DNA from: Escherichia coli | Lineage (GTDB): Bacteria > Pseudomonadota > Gammaproteobacteria > Enterobacterales > Enterobacteriaceae | Assembly: GCF_030013595.1 (NCBI RefSeq) | Contig: NZ_CP122768.1 | DNA: 64,000 bases | Reading direction: 5' to 3' (one strand) | Shown here: positions 1 through 9,752 of the stretch, piece by piece | Position numbering within the stretch: the stretch's first letter is position 1 | Layout: each line of letters starts with the position of its first letter | Translations under genes and position numbers: made by a program | The notes under the pieces: model-generated | The model's database searches: none | The model's input: only the letters and a program-made list of their open reading frames with translations | Told to the model about the DNA's origin: nothing

Positions 1-883
1 TTCTCTTTTTAAACTGTATGTCTTCTGGATTTCCCACTAACTGACTGAAATCTCCTTTCATAACTCTTTCGCTTGTTTCAAAGAGCTGTATTGCTATCGA
101 GTCGATTAATTCCTTTTTGGACAGAGATGCTTGTTCATAAAATTTGGTGACTAACTCTGTTGGTAACTTTCTTGAGACGACTTTAATGGACAGTCTCTGA
201 AATAGGTAAGGTGCCACCACGCCCACACTGAAAGGGTGAATCCTCCCTGGATTTAATAATTTTATTGTGACGTTTTCAAAAACTAGCTCATTGATTTTAC
301 TATTTATGAATTCCATTAAATACTTATCTAATGATAATGTTACCGACGCAACCGCTTCTATCACTTGTTTAAATGGCTCGCCTTTCAAGGATTTAAAAAA
401 CTCTTTGTTATAACCAAAGAAATCCACAAAACCTAAATTTATTCGATTTTCTTCTTTAGTATTTGAAATGCGAATTTGAAGTTGTTTTAAGTCTTCATCG
501 GTCAAGTATTTTAAACCATAGTCATCAAGCGCGTTACGTATAACTTTATCTGCAGATTCTAAGTCGATTACAGTTTTTACATTAAAAAACAATGATAACA
601 ATGAATCATACTTATGAACTCGCAAGGTTAAATCTGTTGCATTTGATGCGGTTACATTTATACGTCTCAAAAGATCAATAACTTTACTAATTGGTAGGCT
701 GTTTTCAAAAATTTTGAATGACTCGTATTCAGATACAACATCTTTTATATACTTACTGATAGTATGAGACTTTATTTCCACCTCAACTTCGGTTGAGTAA
801 GAATGAATTAGTGAGTTTGTAGTTTCAGCGATGTCATTTGATACATACAACTTATATTCGAAACAATCAGGAGCGGGAAGCAA
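1..883 (-). CDS. hypothetical protein, partial (continues past left window edge); AT-rich accessory gene
   Basis: Open minus-strand frame from 883 to position 1 (>290 codons, translated by hand); no in-frame ATG near the 5' end, candidate GTG start at 779-781 after GAAG; different frame from the upstream ORF; ~30% GC. Confidence 0.4.
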   Translation of the reverse strand, partial: MLPAPDCFEYKLYVSNDIAETTNSLIHSYSTEVEVEIKSHTISKYIKDVVSEYESFKIFENSLPISKVIDLLRRINVTASNATDLTLRVHKYDSLLSLFFNVKTVIDLESADKVIRNALDDYGLKYLTDEDLKQLQIRISNTKEENRINLGFVDFFGYNKEFFKSLKGEPFKQVIEAVASVTLSLDKYLMEFINSKINELVFENVTIKLLNPGRIHPFSVGVVAPYLFQRLSIKVVSRKLPTELVTKFYEQASLSKKELIDSIAIQLFETSERVMKGDFSQLVGNPEDIQFKKR

Positions 884-1233
884 CTATTATCAATAATGGA
901 AAACAATAAAAATTTAATTATTTCTCTTAATGCTTGCGGTCTAGTTATTCTACCTTGCATTTTTTTACATTGTATTAAACCACTTACAACACCGTTATGG
1001 TATAGCACGCAGTCGCGTCCTCTTTCAGAAACTCCTTGCATTAAAGATATTGAGGATATATTTTTATGCTTTCCATCTTCAATTTCGTTCTTTACTAACA
1101 AATAACATAGCAACTCAAATTCTCGATCACCTAATTCTGAAAAGGGAAGCAATCCGATACCAGAATCTATAGTCCATGGTCTATATCCTGATTGAGCCTC
1201 GATATTAATTTGTTCGTCACTGATTTTTTTCAC
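808..1233 (-). CDS. hypothetical protein with PD-(D/E)xK-like motif (GRD...16 aa...IQCK)
   Basis: 141-aa ORF, GTG start at 1231-1233 with AAGGAG 6 nt upstream; AT-rich; motif recognised by eye only. Confidence 0.45.
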   Translation of the reverse strand: MKKISDEQINIEAQSGYRPWTIDSGIGLLPFSELGDREFELLCYLLVKNEIEDGKHKNISSISLMQGVSERGRDCVLYHNGVVSGLIQCKKMQGRITRPQALREIIKFLLFSIIDNSCFPLLIVSNISCMYQMTSLKLQTH

Positions 1234-1277: not shown

Positions 1278-1548
1278 CAGGGGATGATGATAAGGTGTAT
1301 CTTTCGAGCTATAAGCACGATAAATAAGTGATTAAAAATGACTCTTTAAACTATTTTAATTTAAAAAATTAATTGTTAGTTCTAATTATGGTATGAGGGC
1401 ATTTTCGGCATAGTTCTAACCATATACTTTGGTAAAAATGACTGTTACGGAACAGACCATAGTAATGCCTGCTATTGGCACGGAGCGGGCCGCCTGAGCG
1501 CCGTGGGGTCTGCAAACGGTAAGCATACCGATAACTATACGCTTGGCC

Positions 1549-1968
1549 TTAGTAACTTTTGCTCCCCTCAATAAATCCGCCATCTTTTATCGGACTGCAA
1601 TGTCCTTCTTCATCAATCAGTTGCTCGTCTTTCAGGTAGGTATATCGATAGATAATTGAGCCATTATCCATCTCACCATTGGTTCGTTTCATTAGGAGAG
1701 TAAAATGTAACGGGCTGTCCCTATATCGAGCTATTCCATGAATATTGGCAAGTACCTCATATTGACGCTCAGGTGATAACCCTTTAAATACATCGAGATA
1801 TCCATGGAATGTTCCATAGAGTGAAGAAGTGTAGATCAGTCGCTGCTCTGGACCAGTAACTTTAAGAGTAATTTGTTCACCCGTATTACAGGTTAGCTTG
1901 GCGGGAAATGTCTCAGCCTGAGCAGAAGAAATAGTCAAGCTTAAAATTATCAGGTAGCAATATTTCAT
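1549..1968 (-). CDS. small secreted/periplasmic protein of unknown function
   Basis: ATG at 1966-1968 gives 139 aa with N-terminal signal peptide MKYCYLIILSLTISSAQA; two Cys in mature part; longer track ORF has an implausible N-extension. Confidence 0.5.
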   Translation of the reverse strand: MKYCYLIILSLTISSAQAETFPAKLTCNTGEQITLKVTGPEQRLIYTSSLYGTFHGYLDVFKGLSPERQYEVLANIHGIARYRDSPLHFTLLMKRTNGEMDNGSIIYRYTYLKDEQLIDEEGHCSPIKDGGFIEGSKSY

Positions 1969-2250
1969 GTGATTAGAATGTCCAAAACTAACATGTATAC
2001 TCGGGATTCTATAACTAGTTGGATGTAGACCCAAGATGTATTGGACTATTCTTCGGTTGTAGTTGGTCAAATCATATATTTTATGTCAGCAATGTCTACT
2101 TTTGGCACATAGCAGACCAGAGACACTGGCGTAAAGCCATGGAGGATCGGTGGGAGGAGGTAAAAATCCTCTCATGCAAAAAATACGCAAAATCGATAAC
2201 AGTTGGAAATCATTCAATACTCGCACTATCGGAAGTTCACCAGCCAGTCG

Positions 2251-2376: not shown

Positions 2377-3246
<870 letters not shown>

Positions 3247-3271
3247 GTCTTTAAGTGATAAGCATAAACCG

Positions 3272-3320
3272 CAGCACGATCTTGCATACGACGTGCTACG
3301 GTTTCATTTATCTCCGACCG
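3272..3320. terminator. hairpin between convergent GIY-YIG gene and pin (likely bidirectional terminator); partner of repeat at 2251..2298
   Basis: Dyad AGCACG-13 nt-CGTGCT followed by GGTTTCATTT; overlaps last pin codons. Confidence 0.45.
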
Positions 3321-3894
3321 GAAACTTCTTATACAAAGTCGATACACCCACATCGTAGATAATCGCCACCTTCTGGCGAGGAGTTCCTGCTGCAATTAAT
3401 CTTCCGGCTTGTGCCCATTGTTCTGGTGTAAGTTTGGGACGACGTCCACCAATTCGTCCCTGTGCGCGAGCAGCTTCCAGTCCAGCTTTTGTTCGTTCAA
3501 CAATCAGTTCACGCTCCATTTCAGCCAGGGCACCCATCACATGAAAGAAAAAGCGTCCCATTGGTGTGCTGGTATCAATTGAATCCGTCAGACTATGAAA
3601 GTTGATGCCTCGTTCGCGCAACTCCTCCACCAACACGACAAGATGCCGCATACTACGCCCCAGCCGATCCAGCTTCCAGACAACCAGAGTGTCACCTGCC
3701 GATAATGTCCTGAGCAGTTTTTTCAGTCCCGGCCTTTCGGACTTTGTGCCGCTTATCTTGTCTTCAAAAATCAGCTCGCATCCTGCACAGTTCAGCGCAT
3801 TACGTTGTAGATCTGTGTTCTGGTCATTTGTTGATACGCGTACATAGCCAATAAGCATGGTAGATCCCCCTGACAAAAGCAGGAATGATGCCAT
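3304..3894 (-). CDS. pin: DNA invertase Pin (Gin/Hin/Cin serine recombinase family)
   Basis: 196-aa ORF begins MLIGYVRVSTNDQNTDLQRNAL, near-identical to recalled e14 Pin. Confidence 0.95.
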   Translation of the reverse strand: MASFLLLSGGSTMLIGYVRVSTNDQNTDLQRNALNCAGCELIFEDKISGTKSERPGLKKLLRTLSAGDTLVVWKLDRLGRSMRHLVVLVEELRERGINFHSLTDSIDTSTPMGRFFFHVMGALAEMERELIVERTKAGLEAARAQGRIGGRRPKLTPEQWAQAGRLIAAGTPRQKVAIIYDVGVSTLYKKFPVGDK

Positions 3895-3912
3895 TTGCTC
3901 GTTATTTCTGCA

Positions 3913-3938
3913 TTTTCATAAACGTTGGTTTGGGAGAA
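3913..3938. repeat. gix/pix-like inversion crossover site (pin-proximal)
   Basis: TTTTCATAAACGTTGGTTTGGGAGAA; reverse complement matches 5774..5799 at ~20/26 and fits the AAACC..GGTTT core of Gin/Hin sites. Confidence 0.6.
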
Positions 3939-4283
3939 GCGGCAAAGAGGAATGTGGGGACAGGAGAAAATCAGGTACCGGATATGAACAGCTTTGGTAA
4001 CTCATTGACCGCCAATGGATACCAGAAATTACCTGGGGGGATGATTATTCAATGGGGGAGTTTTTCTGTCTCACCAACCGGAGGAAGTGTTGGAACAGTT
4101 GATATAACATTACCTGTAGCTTTCCCTGCTGCTTGTCGTTCGGTAAACGCTCTTATTTCAACTAATGATCCTTCTGCCCGTTCTGTGGGCTTTGATATTG
4201 GAAGTACCAACAGAACTAAAATCAGATTTACTTACACTTCTGCTACAACAAATTCAATTTACTGGATGGCTGTGGGGTATTAA
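3939..4283 (+). CDS. alternative tail-fibre C-terminal segment (Sv'-like), silent in this orientation
   Basis: In-frame coding begins at the crossover site; followed by a tail-fibre-assembly gene; upstream part of track ORF 3885.. spans the recombination site. Confidence 0.6.
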   Translation, partial: AAKRNVGTGENQVPDMNSFGNSLTANGYQKLPGGMIIQWGSFSVSPTGGSVGTVDITLPVAFPAACRSVNALISTNDPSARSVGFDIGSTNRTKIRFTYTSATTNSIYWMAVGY

Positions 4284-4285
4284 CT

Positions 4286-4717
4286 ATGGAAAAGACATAT
4301 TATTTTAATCCCTCTGATTCGGGATTTTATATTTCACCAGATAGCCAAACCATTCCTGAGAACGCTACGAAAATAAACTTTACTATTTATTCTGAGTTCG
4401 CAGGAGTTGCATGGCCTGATGGTAAAATACTTGGTTCAGATAAAAATGGTTTTCCAGCATGGCAGGATGCGCCACCACTTACCAGCGAAGAATTAATCTC
4501 AATCGCTGAATCAAATAAACAGCGATTAGTTAATCAGGCCAACGAATACATGAACAGTAAACAATGGCCTGGTAAAGCGGCGATTGGTCGTCTGAAAGGT
4601 GAGGAACTGGCGCAATATAATTTGTGGCTGGATTATCTGGACGCACTGGAACTGGTCGATACTTCCAGTGCGCCAGATATTGAATGGCCTACTCCTCCGG
4701 CAGTTCAGGCCAGATGA
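4286..4717 (+). CDS. tail fibre assembly protein (alternative, U'-like)
   Basis: 143 aa; C-terminal [12 protein letters not shown] motif typical of Tfa proteins; inside invertible segment. Confidence 0.75.
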   Translation: MEKTYYFNPSDSGFYISPDSQTIPENATKINFTIYSEFAGVAWPDGKILGSDKNGFPAWQDAPPLTSEELISIAESNKQRLVNQANEYMNSKQWPGKAAIGRLKGEELAQYNLWLDYLDALELVDTSSAPDIEWPTPPAVQAR

Positions 4718-5294
4718 CATCCGGCGCGGTACTGGTATCTGTTGCCGTCACCGCGTCAATGTAATCCAGCACAGTGTTAAGTCGGGTGGTCTCTGCCTGC
4801 ATCAGCTTCCGCCCGGCCTGCAATTTCAGTTGAATCAGACTAATGGAAGCCATTGCAGTATCAATCAGTGACTGACGTTGTGCTTCTGCCGCGTCTACTG
4901 CGGCGCTATGCTGTGTCTCAGTATCCGTTACCCATTTCTCACCATCCCATTTATCGTATGGCGTTAACGGGGCGATAGTGGTTGTTTTTTCGGGGTAATC
5001 ACCCGGAGTTGTGATTTCTTTGGCGTCTCCCGTTTCGGTGTTATAGACGATTTCACCGCGATGGTCTGGTACATATTCCCATGAGTTAAAATCTGCAGAG
5101 CGGCAGATTGCATAACCAGCTTTGTAGGTGCCTGGAGCATCTAAACAGGAATATGCCGGAATGCCGACACCAACAGCAAGATATTCAGTTGAAGCTGAAA
5201 TATACTCCCGACTCATGACGTCAAAGTTATAAACAGTAATTTCTCCTGCCATAGTGGCAATTAATTCACTGTTTAATTCTGCGTTATTCATCAT
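4689..5294 (-). CDS. tail fibre assembly protein (expressed orientation, U-like)
   Basis: 201 aa; C-terminal [15 protein letters not shown]; directly downstream of tail fibre gene. Confidence 0.8.
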
Positions 5295-6076
5295 GCGGCC
5301 CTCACAATATAATTAAAGGCGATGTTACGTGGACGATTTTCATTTGCTGTTGGAACAACATTTGCCGCCGAGAAGTGAACATCTTGTCGGATTTTTCGGT
5401 CATTAGCGTATGTCATAGACACATTGATGTTATTCCGGACTGAGGTACCTCCGTAAAAAGCTCCACTCACACTTTGAACATCGACAATTGCATTAATTTC
5501 GCTGTTTACGCGCAACTGACCAAAACCGCCAGTAATGTTTCGAATAGCATCTCCTTGCGATGAAAGCAGAGTTCGCCCACTATCCACACCACGTTCATCA
5601 TCCCAGCCACGAATAAACTCACCGCGTAAATCAGGCAATTTATTTGTCGGGTAAGACTTTGCCAGTTCCGGGTATTCTTCAGCAGAAAAAGCCGCACCAT
5701 TGCATTTCAGCCAGCCTGTTGGTGGAGTGGCTGAAGGCCACGGAACAGGCACACCAACGGGTAATGCCGAACCTTCTCCCAAACCAAGGTTTTCGAGAGC
5801 TGTTTTCACCGTGCCATCCGATTTGATATCGCCAAACGGATTCTTGCGGCTTAACAGCAGCGCACGAAGCGCGGTAAGCAGCTGGTCATGCCGCCCCTTC
5901 TCCAGGCTGGCACCGGATGCCTCCACAACGCTGCAAAGCTCCTCCTGCAACATGTCAAAGTAGTCATCATCCAGATCGGTGGCAGGCGTGCCGGTCTGGG
6001 GGTTACCACGGGTAAAACCGTTCTTACCCGCGCCGAACTTATCCTTCTGCGCGGTTTTCGTGTCTATACGATGCAT
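5291..6076 (-). CDS. tail fibre protein (constant N-part fused to variable C-part)
   Basis: 261 aa; contains second crossover site about 92 codons in; position after Mu gp48-like gene. Confidence 0.8.
5774..5799. repeat. gix/pix-like inversion crossover site (inside tail fibre gene)
   Basis: TTCTCCCAAACCAAGGTTTTCGAGAG, inverted repeat of 3913..3938. Confidence 0.6.
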
Positions 6077-8673: not shown

Positions 8674-9752
8674 CAGAACGGGTCCTCCTGTACTCTGGCT
8701 TTTTTCTTTTTCCGCGCGCCGGGGGCTTCGGGTCCAGGCAGATAAGCATCAGGCGGGCCGACACGGATTTCCGTCAGGGTGCCGTTCTGGTCCTGAGTAA
8801 ACGTGACTTCCGAGACAAGCAGTTCGGTATTGTCGAAACCACAGACCGGATCGAAGACAATCACCCGCTGGTTGGGCTGCCACAGCGTACCGTTACCCTG
8901 TCGCCAGCCCTGCACCACATAGGTGGTTTCATCCGTCCGCGCCGCCCGTTGCCGGGCTTCAAAGTCAGCACGCGCAATACAGCCTGCCCCCGTAGCCTGC
9001 CCTGTCTGCCTGATATACATCGGACGGTAACGGGCAATAAATGCGTCTTCTGTGCGGGCCCGCAGCGCGGTGGTGGTGGCCTCACCGAAATCATCGTCGT
9101 TTCCGGCACGCTGCCCCGCCACCTGGTAAACAGAAAACCGCTCCCGGATACTCTTCTCCGTATCGCAGGAAAGGATGTTTTCCCCGAGTACCAGCGCGGT
9201 ATGTGCCCGCGTTGAGCCAATACCGCCAATCACCAGCCTGCCGTGCGAGTCGTCGTAAGCCAGCGCCTGCTGCTGACCGAGTATTTTGTTGATCACCTCG
9301 ATCACCGTTTCACCGTGATCAGGCTGGACATCAGGAATAACACCCGACGGCGCACCGCTGTTCACCACCTCAATGCCGAAAGGCGCAGCAAGCGCCTGCG
9401 CAATCTGTACCAGCGATCGTCCGTTAAACTGTGTCGGTTCGGCTGCACAGTCAATCAGGTCAGCGGTCAGACTACGTCCGGCAATACCGGTGCTGACCGA
9501 ACGGGCATCGTAACGAACGGGCGTCGCCTCCACCCAGCCAGTGATCACCAGCTCATCACCAATCAGCACTTCCACTTTTGAACCGTTTTTAATGCGCGGC
9601 TGAAGCGTGGTGATACCCTCATCTCCCGGCCACTGGCGGGTGATCTCCACACTGAAATCCCGCGCCAGTCGTTCAACACCGGCACCGATGCGCACCGATG
9701 TCCAGCCATTCCACTCCCGGCCATTTACCCGTAGCGTGACGTTATCGTTCAT
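8673..9752 (-). CDS. Mu gpP-like tail protein (baseplate hub)
   Basis: 359 aa; synteny after DNA circulation protein. Confidence 0.8.
   Translation of the reverse strand: MNDNVTLRVNGREWNGWTSVRIGAGVERLARDFSVEITRQWPGDEGITTLQPRIKNGSKVEVLIGDELVITGWVEATPVRYDARSVSTGIAGRSLTADLIDCAAEPTQFNGRSLVQIAQALAAPFGIEVVNSGAPSGVIPDVQPDHGETVIEVINKILGQQQALAYDDSHGRLVIGGIGSTRAHTALVLGENILSCDTEKSIRERFSVYQVAGQRAGNDDDFGEATTTALRARTEDAFIARYRPMYIRQTGQATGAGCIARADFEARQRAARTDETTYVVQGWRQGNGTLWQPNQRVIVFDPVCGFDNTELLVSEVTFTQDQNGTLTEIRVGPPDAYLPGPEAPGARKKKKARVQEDPF

Follow-up and report, generated by a model that had tools for sequence, protein, structure and literature searches.

We analyzed a 64,000-nucleotide stretch of Escherichia coli DNA (RefSeq assembly GCF_030013595.1, contig NZ_CP122768.1), referred to below as the window, and concentrated on one small gene in it, which we call the barrel gene after the predicted fold of its product. 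The open reading frame (ORF) is on the minus strand, with its ATG at 1968 and its TAA at 1549-1551 (139 codons). To its left is a nuclease-like gene of 488 amino acids (aa), also on the minus strand, that starts at 1233 and runs off the left end of the window. To its right, on the plus strand, is a GIY-YIG gene (2473-3246). An earlier reading made from the letters alone (the sequence-only reading) had placed a 139-aa ORF at 1549-1968 between a nuclease-motif ORF and the GIY-YIG gene. That placement holds, and the ORF is borne out by the ORF list, its translation, RefSeq, its homologues, and the ratio of non-synonymous to synonymous substitution rates (Ka/Ks).

The ORF is a genuine gene and not a chance ORF. 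Ka/Ks among its homologues was 0.10-0.16 (Nei-Gojobori, well-diverged pairs), indicating that the frame is under purifying selection. We considered a longer ORF that begins at an in-frame TTG at 2070 and rejected it. The extension has eight non-synonymous changes versus one synonymous change (Ka/Ks 2.4), and we therefore take the ATG at 1968 as the start. An identical protein is present in RefSeq as WP_001333214.1, with the label 'hypothetical protein', in E. coli ECONIH4 and D2, among others; we found no mention of this accession in the literature. RefSeq holds two gene models for the same DNA. The 139-aa model is used on chromosomes and on one Salmonella plasmid, and a 129-aa model that starts at TTG codon 11 (WP_223596848.1, WP_244584287.1) is used on other plasmids, including two fetched plasmid loci (L016 and L017, 7031-7420 in each) that carry copies of window positions 1549-1968. 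The shorter model drops most of the signal peptide, which would hide the export prediction and mislead screens based on localization.

The barrel protein is very likely a real, exported protein. We used a rule-based check for signal peptides throughout the family. The precursor begins MKYCYLIILSLTISSAQA/ETF (the slash marks the predicted cut), with a lysine in the n-region, a hydrophobic core of 13 residues, within the 7-15 asked of an h-region, and A-Q-A at positions -3 to -1; split into its parts, the signal reads MK, YCYLIILSLTISS, and AQA/E, in agreement with the n/h/c layout for Sec and signal peptidase I. All of the full-length relatives have a signal of 17-19 aa with K or R near the start, A, V or G at -3, and A or C at -1, and the 10-residue hydrophobic window of the signal scores 1.9-2.7 on the Kyte-Doolittle scale. 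This layout is kept across the full-length relatives although the sequence of the signal drifts, and the Sec signal peptide proposed in the sequence-only reading is supported. Even the most divergent family member, which had been called as a 101-aa fragment, is really an ORF of 135 aa with a signal peptide at its start. No lipobox ([LVI][ASTVI][GAS]C) was found at the end of the signal in the precursor, where the cleavage region is S-A-Q-A/E and the only early cysteine is C4, within the n/h region. The one relative with a cysteine at -1 reads A-Q-C, again with no lipobox, and no twin-arginine motif was found in the signal peptides of the family. Residues 9-15 of the precursor had a predicted local distance difference test score (pLDDT) below 50 in AlphaFold2, indicating that the signal segment is outside the fold. 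Based on this layout, we infer that the signal is cleaved and that the protein ends up in the periplasm.

The mature protein is predicted to fold as an eight-stranded barrel. Structure prediction had been proposed in the sequence-only reading as a check. We ran AlphaFold2 twice, once with 11 close homologues and once with 13 sequences down to 39% identity, and both runs gave the same model (mean pLDDT 86-87; predicted template-modeling score, pTM, 0.79). Block means of pLDDT over the mature domain were approximately 79-96 and were lowest at the C-terminal end. The modeled strands comprise residues 19-27, 32-37, 43-48, 52-64, 70-82, 85-96, 105-113, and 116-126, with a short C-terminal strand at 132-135. 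The mature protein has 121 aa, a mass of 13.8 kDa, and an isoelectric point (pI) of 5.8, with nine tyrosines and no tryptophan. The fold matches to the model include many other eight-stranded meander barrels, both soluble and membrane-embedded, and Foldseek, too, put avidins at the top of its list, with weak statistics (E ~0.01, TM 0.37-0.56). There was no fold match at E<=0.001 among the viral structures in BFVD. The predicted fold is thus an up-and-down barrel of the streptavidin type, and the matches give no evidence that it is homologous to one particular family.

The barrel is probably closed by a disulfide. C124 is invariant and C27 is nearly invariant (>=90%) across the family. C27 is in the first and C124 in the eighth strand of the model, and because strands 1 and 8 are neighbors in a closed eight-stranded meander, a bond between these two cysteines is likely. 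The sequence-only reading had counted two cysteines, which is correct for the mature protein (C27 and C124) and not for the precursor, which has three (C4, C27, and C124). Alignment entropy is lower on the more hydrophobic face of each of the eight strands. Conserved hydrophobic faces fit a soluble barrel with a buried core and are the opposite of what a lipid-facing membrane barrel would have. The invariant polar residues of the family are E41, Q42, R43, E71, E134, K137, and the C-terminal Y139. Variation is strong on the outward side of the hairpin of strands 7 and 8, where the entropy is 2.1-2.3 bits versus 0.9-1.3 bits for the other outer faces.

In sequence, the barrel protein represents a family that has not been described; its fold and its genomic role, that of a moron, are both known. 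There was no Pfam match for the query or for any of the 13 family members that were scanned, no match in NCBIfam or PADLOC, and no PDB sequence match in either a single-sequence or a profile search. These results agree with the absence of a recognizable family stated in the sequence-only reading. Homology to a characterized, unrelated family, the finding that would have spoken against that reading, was looked for and not found in the sequence family searches. The single weak match in PHROGs was to phrog_24265, whose function is unannotated (best E 0.002; 5 of 13 members). At 90% identity, the family falls into 11 clusters within a set of 5.8 billion proteins, every one of them in mobile elements of Enterobacterales, and the homologues in Klebsiella, Citrobacter, and Pectobacterium are 63-88% identical to the barrel protein. 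An exhaustive profile search of 1.8 billion representatives gave nine matches, eight of which were small stand-alone proteins or fragments. We judged the ninth, a repeat-rich protein of 1878 aa in which a stretch of 37 residues was aligned (E 3e-6), to be spurious. No relative was found in 100,044 species-representative genomes. The gene itself is present in 38 of 5426 complete E. coli genomes (0.7%) at an identity of at least 99.8%, on 30 chromosomes and nine plasmids, and three identical copies are present in prophage-type contigs of IMG/VR.

What the gene is associated with is a type of neighborhood, the defense and cargo hotspots of mobile elements, rather than any partner gene. In E. coli chromosomes, it is located beyond pinE in the cargo region that ends an e14-like prophage with Mu-type baseplate genes. 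The order there is the 488-aa hypothetical gene, the barrel gene, and the GIY-YIG gene, which is PD-T4-3 according to PADLOC (E 2e-140) and matches the crystal structures 9U75 (E 1e-172) and 9U7U (E 1e-150); the trio is also kept in a decayed prophage remnant. In other strains, this prophage-end region is filled by alternative genes that are mostly of the defense type, and the site beside pinE holds, for example, an ATP-dependent endonuclease, or a lipase-family gene and PD-T4-3. Lambdoid prophages carry the homologue at their end, or close to it, in Citrobacter, K. pneumoniae, K. aerogenes, and a metagenomic Enterobacterales contig. It occurs there in either orientation, with SRAP, umuDC or dinI as its neighbor; in Citrobacter and both Klebsiella it is the last gene before host DNA. 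The homologue in Pectobacterium, a plant pathogen, is part of an integrative element that also encodes integrases and a relaxase. Plasmids of 210-260 kb from E. coli and Salmonella (one typed as IncHI1B) and a 106-kb IncFIB phage-plasmid carry the gene, in each case beside ISKpn26. In Atlantibacter, IncFIB conjugative plasmids carry a relative of 39% identity in the interval from an orphan DNA methylase gene, with ArdA and SSB genes beyond it, to the partition genes. The description of the gene as prophage cargo in the sequence-only reading thus stands for the variable region at the end of the e14-like prophage and is too narrow for the family, which is also on plasmids, an integrative element, and a phage-plasmid.

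The barrel gene moves alone, as a cassette of 0.6-0.85 kb (Table 1). In blastn comparisons with the fetched loci, the cassette core (1513-2113) was 92% identical to the Pectobacterium integrative element, a second plasmid type shared window positions 1493-2231, and Klebsiella and Citrobacter shared little beyond the ORF. Three contexts with nothing else in common share exactly the same upstream boundary, at 2231, and on the downstream side ISKpn26 cuts the cassette at one of two positions, 1382 or 1493. This IS5-like element (L016, 7587-8786; L017, 7476-8675) abuts the 3' side of the barrel gene in two unrelated plasmid backbones. We found no flanking repeats of a transposon-like unit around the cassette itself. 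Although the regions upstream of the Pectobacterium, K. pneumoniae, K. aerogenes, and metagenomic homologues have otherwise diverged, all four retain the promoter-like motif found upstream of the gene, TTGGGT-17-TAGAAT; its counterpart in Citrobacter is TTTGGC-17-TAAGAT, making five homologues in all that keep the motif. The consensus scan did not flag this motif. The site that the scan did report is conserved only in the E. coli and Pectobacterium copies, and the number of sites in the scan was not above the shuffled expectation. Downstream of the gene, the terminator scan gave no site. The hairpin after the stop codon folds with -8.7 kcal/mol (z -0.3 versus shuffles), and a strong hairpin is present there only in the Klebsiella homologue. 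A structured RNA downstream of the gene was rejected, as the fold was no better than shuffles and there was no Rfam match in the cassette. The G+C content is approximately 0.39-0.43 versus 0.55-0.60 in the tail genes. A promoter-like motif of its own, low G+C, and a discrete boundary together form the profile of an autonomous cargo gene. We conclude that the barrel gene is an autonomous mobile 'moron' cassette, which conforms to that class in its promoter-like motif, composition, discreteness, and place at prophage ends and departs from it in the lack of a supported terminator.

Table 1. Features of the barrel gene and its cassette, in window coordinates
Feature	Positions	Strand	Basis
Precursor coding sequence, 139 aa (WP_001333214.1), stop included	1549-1968	-	ORF list, RefSeq, homologues, Ka/Ks
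Predicted signal peptide, residues 1-18 (MKYCYLIILSLTISSAQA), predicted signal-peptidase-I cut after A18	1915-1968	-	n/h/c layout, -3/-1 rule
Mature domain, residues 19-139, predicted eight-stranded up-and-down beta-barrel	1552-1914	-	AlphaFold2 model
Portable cassette	1382-2231		blastn; 100% identical to a segment of an IncHI1B-type plasmid
Promoter-like motif TTGGGT-17 nt-TAGAAT, ending ~38 nt upstream of the ATG	2006-2034	-	read by eye; kept upstream of homologues
Second promoter-like site TAGACA-16-TATGAT (10/12)	2071-2098	-	consensus scan
Weak, non-significant hairpin immediately 3' of the stop codon (possible terminator)	1518-1548	-	RNA fold

The barrel gene resembles the lambdoid morons bor, lom, and sodC in being a single gene with its own promoter-like motif, low G+C (~40% versus 55-60% in tail genes), and a site at a prophage end. 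It differs from them in that it is unrelated in sequence, is predicted to be neither a lipoprotein nor an outer-membrane barrel, and is also found on plasmids and an integrative element.

Of the readings we considered for what the protein does, the one that we rank first, and hold tentatively, is an anti-phage entry block of the superinfection-exclusion type. The precursor would be exported by Sec and cut after Ala18 to give a soluble 13.8-kDa periplasmic protein, and the mature protein would fold as the eight-stranded streptavidin-like barrel, stapled by the C27-C124 disulfide. The barrel might then act as a stoichiometric periplasmic binder that protects the cell carrying it, by binding either a phage component needed to cross or open the envelope or a host component used by that phage. 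Several lines of evidence point to a protective binder in the periplasm: the exported barrel, the conserved pair of cysteines, the invariant polar residues, the variable face of one hairpin, and carriage on mobile elements, often beside anti-phage genes, in both animal-associated and plant-pathogenic Enterobacterales. Defense genes recur beside members of the family, namely PD-T4-3/CMoRE, a PD-T4-7-like gene, a solo GIY-YIG nuclease gene, and the variable hotspot on the side of pinE.

There are precedents for periplasmic entry blockers in Llp and the HXS system, and further ones in T4 Spackle and P1 Sim; Spackle, Sim, and phi80 Cor act in the envelope and block the entry of incoming phage. These exclusion proteins (T4 Spackle, P1 Sim, T5 Llp, phi80 Cor, and the HXS effector) are, like the barrel protein, small exported proteins of mobile elements, carried as cargo beside defense genes. 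We found no sequence relationship and detected no fold likeness between them and the barrel protein, and Llp and Cor are lipoproteins, unlike the barrel protein with its lack of a lipobox. The barrel also invites comparison with Cap15, the membrane effector and cyclic-nucleotide receptor of the cyclic-oligonucleotide-based anti-phage signaling system (CBASS), which has transmembrane helices and a cytoplasmic barrel and is encoded in an operon with a cGAS/DncV-like nucleotidyltransferase (CD-NTase). Unlike Cap15, the barrel protein has a single hydrophobic stretch of 13 residues with an AXA site and is predicted to be periplasmic. No CBASS genes were present in the contexts examined, and PADLOC gave no CBASS match for the barrel gene or its neighbors.

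Several findings weigh against an entry block. The family searches revealed no homology to a characterized exclusion, immunity or inhibitor protein, and there was no match in 50,697 deposited phage genomes. Guilt by association is a weak argument, and prophage ends and the accessory regions of plasmids also hold cargo that is not defensive, such as SRAP, umuDC, and dinI. Ka/Ks is low overall and gives no hint of an arms race, and the only strongly variable surface is the outer face of the strand 7-8 hairpin. The broader proposal, that we are dealing with a new single-gene anti-phage or anti-toxin family that acts in the periplasm, is built on a streptavidin-like barrel, and travels as a sub-kilobase cassette in nuclease-defense hotspots, strikes us as somewhat doubtful.

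We weighed five other explanations, and any probability that these and the entry block leave over belongs to none of them. The protein might be an orphan immunity protein, spread by mobile elements, that neutralizes a toxin acting in the periplasm (a type VI effector, or a bacteriocin of the colicin M or pesticin type). A small periplasmic protein with a predicted single-domain binder fold and a putative disulfide would suit that role, as would a gene that stands alone on diverse mobile elements. We nevertheless consider it unlikely: no family member was beside a secreted toxin or a secretion-system gene in the contexts examined, the profile search of 1.8 billion representatives showed no toxin-linked parent pair, and NCBIfam, which is rich in immunity families, gave no match. 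It is similarly unlikely that the barrel sequesters a vitamin, lipid, signal or antibiotic in the periplasm in the manner of avidins, lipocalins, and YceI-type proteins. Avidin is the closest fold, and the invariant residues E41, Q42, R43, E71, E134, K137, and Y139 could line one end of the barrel. However, eight-stranded barrels match one another generically, and the invariant polar cluster may be merely structural, anchoring the C-terminal tail. The biotin pockets of avidins are lined with tryptophan. The barrel protein shares the eight-stranded meander fold of avidin and streptavidin (PF01382), but it is only 5-10% identical to avidins and 5-13% to the avidin/streptavidin family, has no match to the Pfam avidin hidden Markov model (HMM), and has no tryptophan in its mature form, so that the biotin pocket is absent and the likeness is one of fold and not of membership. 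Lysozyme inhibition in the mode of PliC and MliC, directed at host lysozyme or at the muralytic enzyme of an incoming phage tail (as with T4 Spackle), we regard as rather more improbable. The general build is common to both, an exported eight-stranded barrel with one cysteine in the first strand and another near the C-terminus, and the pI of the mature protein is mildly acidic. Membership in PliC/MliC, as distinct from a like mode of action, is excluded: PF09864 matched none of 13 family members (E<=1), and an hhalign comparison with the MliC alignment gave 10% probability over 46 columns that cover only the signal peptide and the first strands. The stretches that are invariant in the MliC alignment, S69-Y75 (SxSGAxY; SASGARY in MliC) and Y80-G86 (YxxxS/TKG; YVFWSKG), have no aligned or convincing counterpart in the barrel family, in which there is only a loose 'VFKG' resemblance whose lysine is not invariant. 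MliC and PliC are also chromosomal core genes, whereas the barrel gene is a rare cargo gene of mobile elements. The occurrence of the gene in a plant pathogen argues against a role aimed specifically at animal lysozyme, and we found no paper that ties a prophage-encoded lysozyme inhibitor to this setting.

The remaining two explanations have little to recommend them. It is very improbable that the barrel protein is an accessory of a neighboring nuclease, whether PD-T4-3/CMoRE, the 488-aa gene or the GIY-YIG gene that it overlaps in Atlantibacter. GIY-YIG genes are adjacent in two unrelated settings, with a start/stop overlap of 4 nt in Atlantibacter, and in E. coli chromosomes the barrel gene and the 488-aa gene point the same way. 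The two GIY-YIG proteins, however, are unrelated by BLAST, and an exported protein cannot meet a cytoplasmic nuclease. PD-T4-3/CMoRE is a type IV restriction enzyme, encoded by a single gene, that acts against DNA with hydroxymethyl-cytosine or glucosyl-hydroxymethyl-cytosine (PMC12923530; bioRxiv 10.1101/2024.12.20.629700). Because it works as a single gene, the barrel protein is not part of it, and its upstream region is present in more E. coli records (at least 127 at a coverage of at least 80%) than the 39 that have the barrel gene. The copies on plasmids and in Klebsiella, Citrobacter, and Pectobacterium have none of the three partners; the GIY-YIG gene of the Atlantibacter type is normally solo, and a related contig keeps the barrel gene and has lost the nuclease gene. 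A functional link to any of the three is largely refuted by this distribution. Least probable of all is that the protein is a small outer-membrane beta-barrel like Lom, Ail, and OmpX, a class well known among prophage cargo. The mature protein has only 121 aa, with three strands of at most six residues and short loops throughout; its hydrophobic faces are the conserved ones in all eight strands, and acidic residues are on both faces of strand 8. A conserved pair of cysteines also does not fit, and the C-terminal K-S-Y is unlike the hydrophobic beta-signal pattern.

Bacterial defenses known to work in the periplasm, ahead of the entry of phage DNA, are few, and small exported proteins carried as cargo routinely keep the label 'hypothetical'. 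If the barrel protein does block phage entry or neutralize a periplasmic toxin, it would be a compact and easily transferred module for protection at the level of the envelope, which would also give a reason for its co-location with nuclease defenses. If neither role holds, it would be a rare accessory gene of limited consequence, carried by 0.7% of complete E. coli genomes.

Several observations concern the neighbors of the barrel gene and not the gene itself. The 488-aa gene is intact in ECONIH4 and D2 (WP_000723924.1), and the copy in the window (1-1233, minus strand) has a frameshift near 874-883, at which the tblastn match splits at residues 118-120. The N-terminus of the 488-aa protein has a PD-(D/E)xK-like motif, and there was a weak PADLOC match to LmuA (E 0.0036); no match was found in Pfam, NCBIfam or PDB.

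Two homologues outside E. coli have other nuclease or defense-type genes nearby. In the K. pneumoniae locus (L008), a gene of 345 aa at 9423-10460, two genes from the barrel homologue, matches PD-T4-7 in PADLOC (E 2.4e-34), and the same lambdoid prophage end also holds SRAP and umuDC cargo. In the two Atlantibacter loci (L018, 5255-6390; L021, 3255-4390), the barrel relative overlaps by 4 nt the upstream gene for a 246-aa protein, to which RefSeq gives the name GIY-YIG nuclease. This nuclease family has at least 820 clusters, whose members are otherwise solo, and in Salmonella its gene is likewise at a prophage end beside tail-fiber genes. It may be an uncharacterized single-gene defense nuclease.

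The region between the barrel gene and pinE contains small repeated elements. Of 5426 complete E. coli genomes, more than 3000 have the element of ~100 nt that is found at 2178-2286, in up to seven places per genome, and a piece of it is labeled as a 'capsid protein' pseudogene by the Prokaryotic Genome Annotation Pipeline (PGAP). It marks a junction of cargo cassettes, with the boundary of the barrel cassette at 2231 inside it; it directly abuts pinE in strain ET210 and follows a lambdoid tail-fiber gene in Citrobacter. A 26-nt direct repeat (88% identical; 2249-2274 and 3270-3295) brackets the PD-T4-3 gene, and its second copy follows closely on the pinE stop codon, as though recombination at this sequence had inserted the PD-T4-3 cassette. 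Overlapping 3270-3326 on the minus strand is a weak Rfam match to CssrB, with 32 bits (gathering score 76) and E 5.5e-4.

At 3304-6076 of the window, the pinE invertase gene (3304-3894, minus strand) is beside an invertible tail-fiber segment with two opposed tail-fiber assembly genes. The orientation of this segment in ECONIH4 matches that in the window, and strain D2 has it the other way round, a difference that fits active Pin-mediated inversion. A 2025 paper (PMC12529663) reportedly ties Pin inversions within cryptic prophages to blocked adsorption of phage T2.

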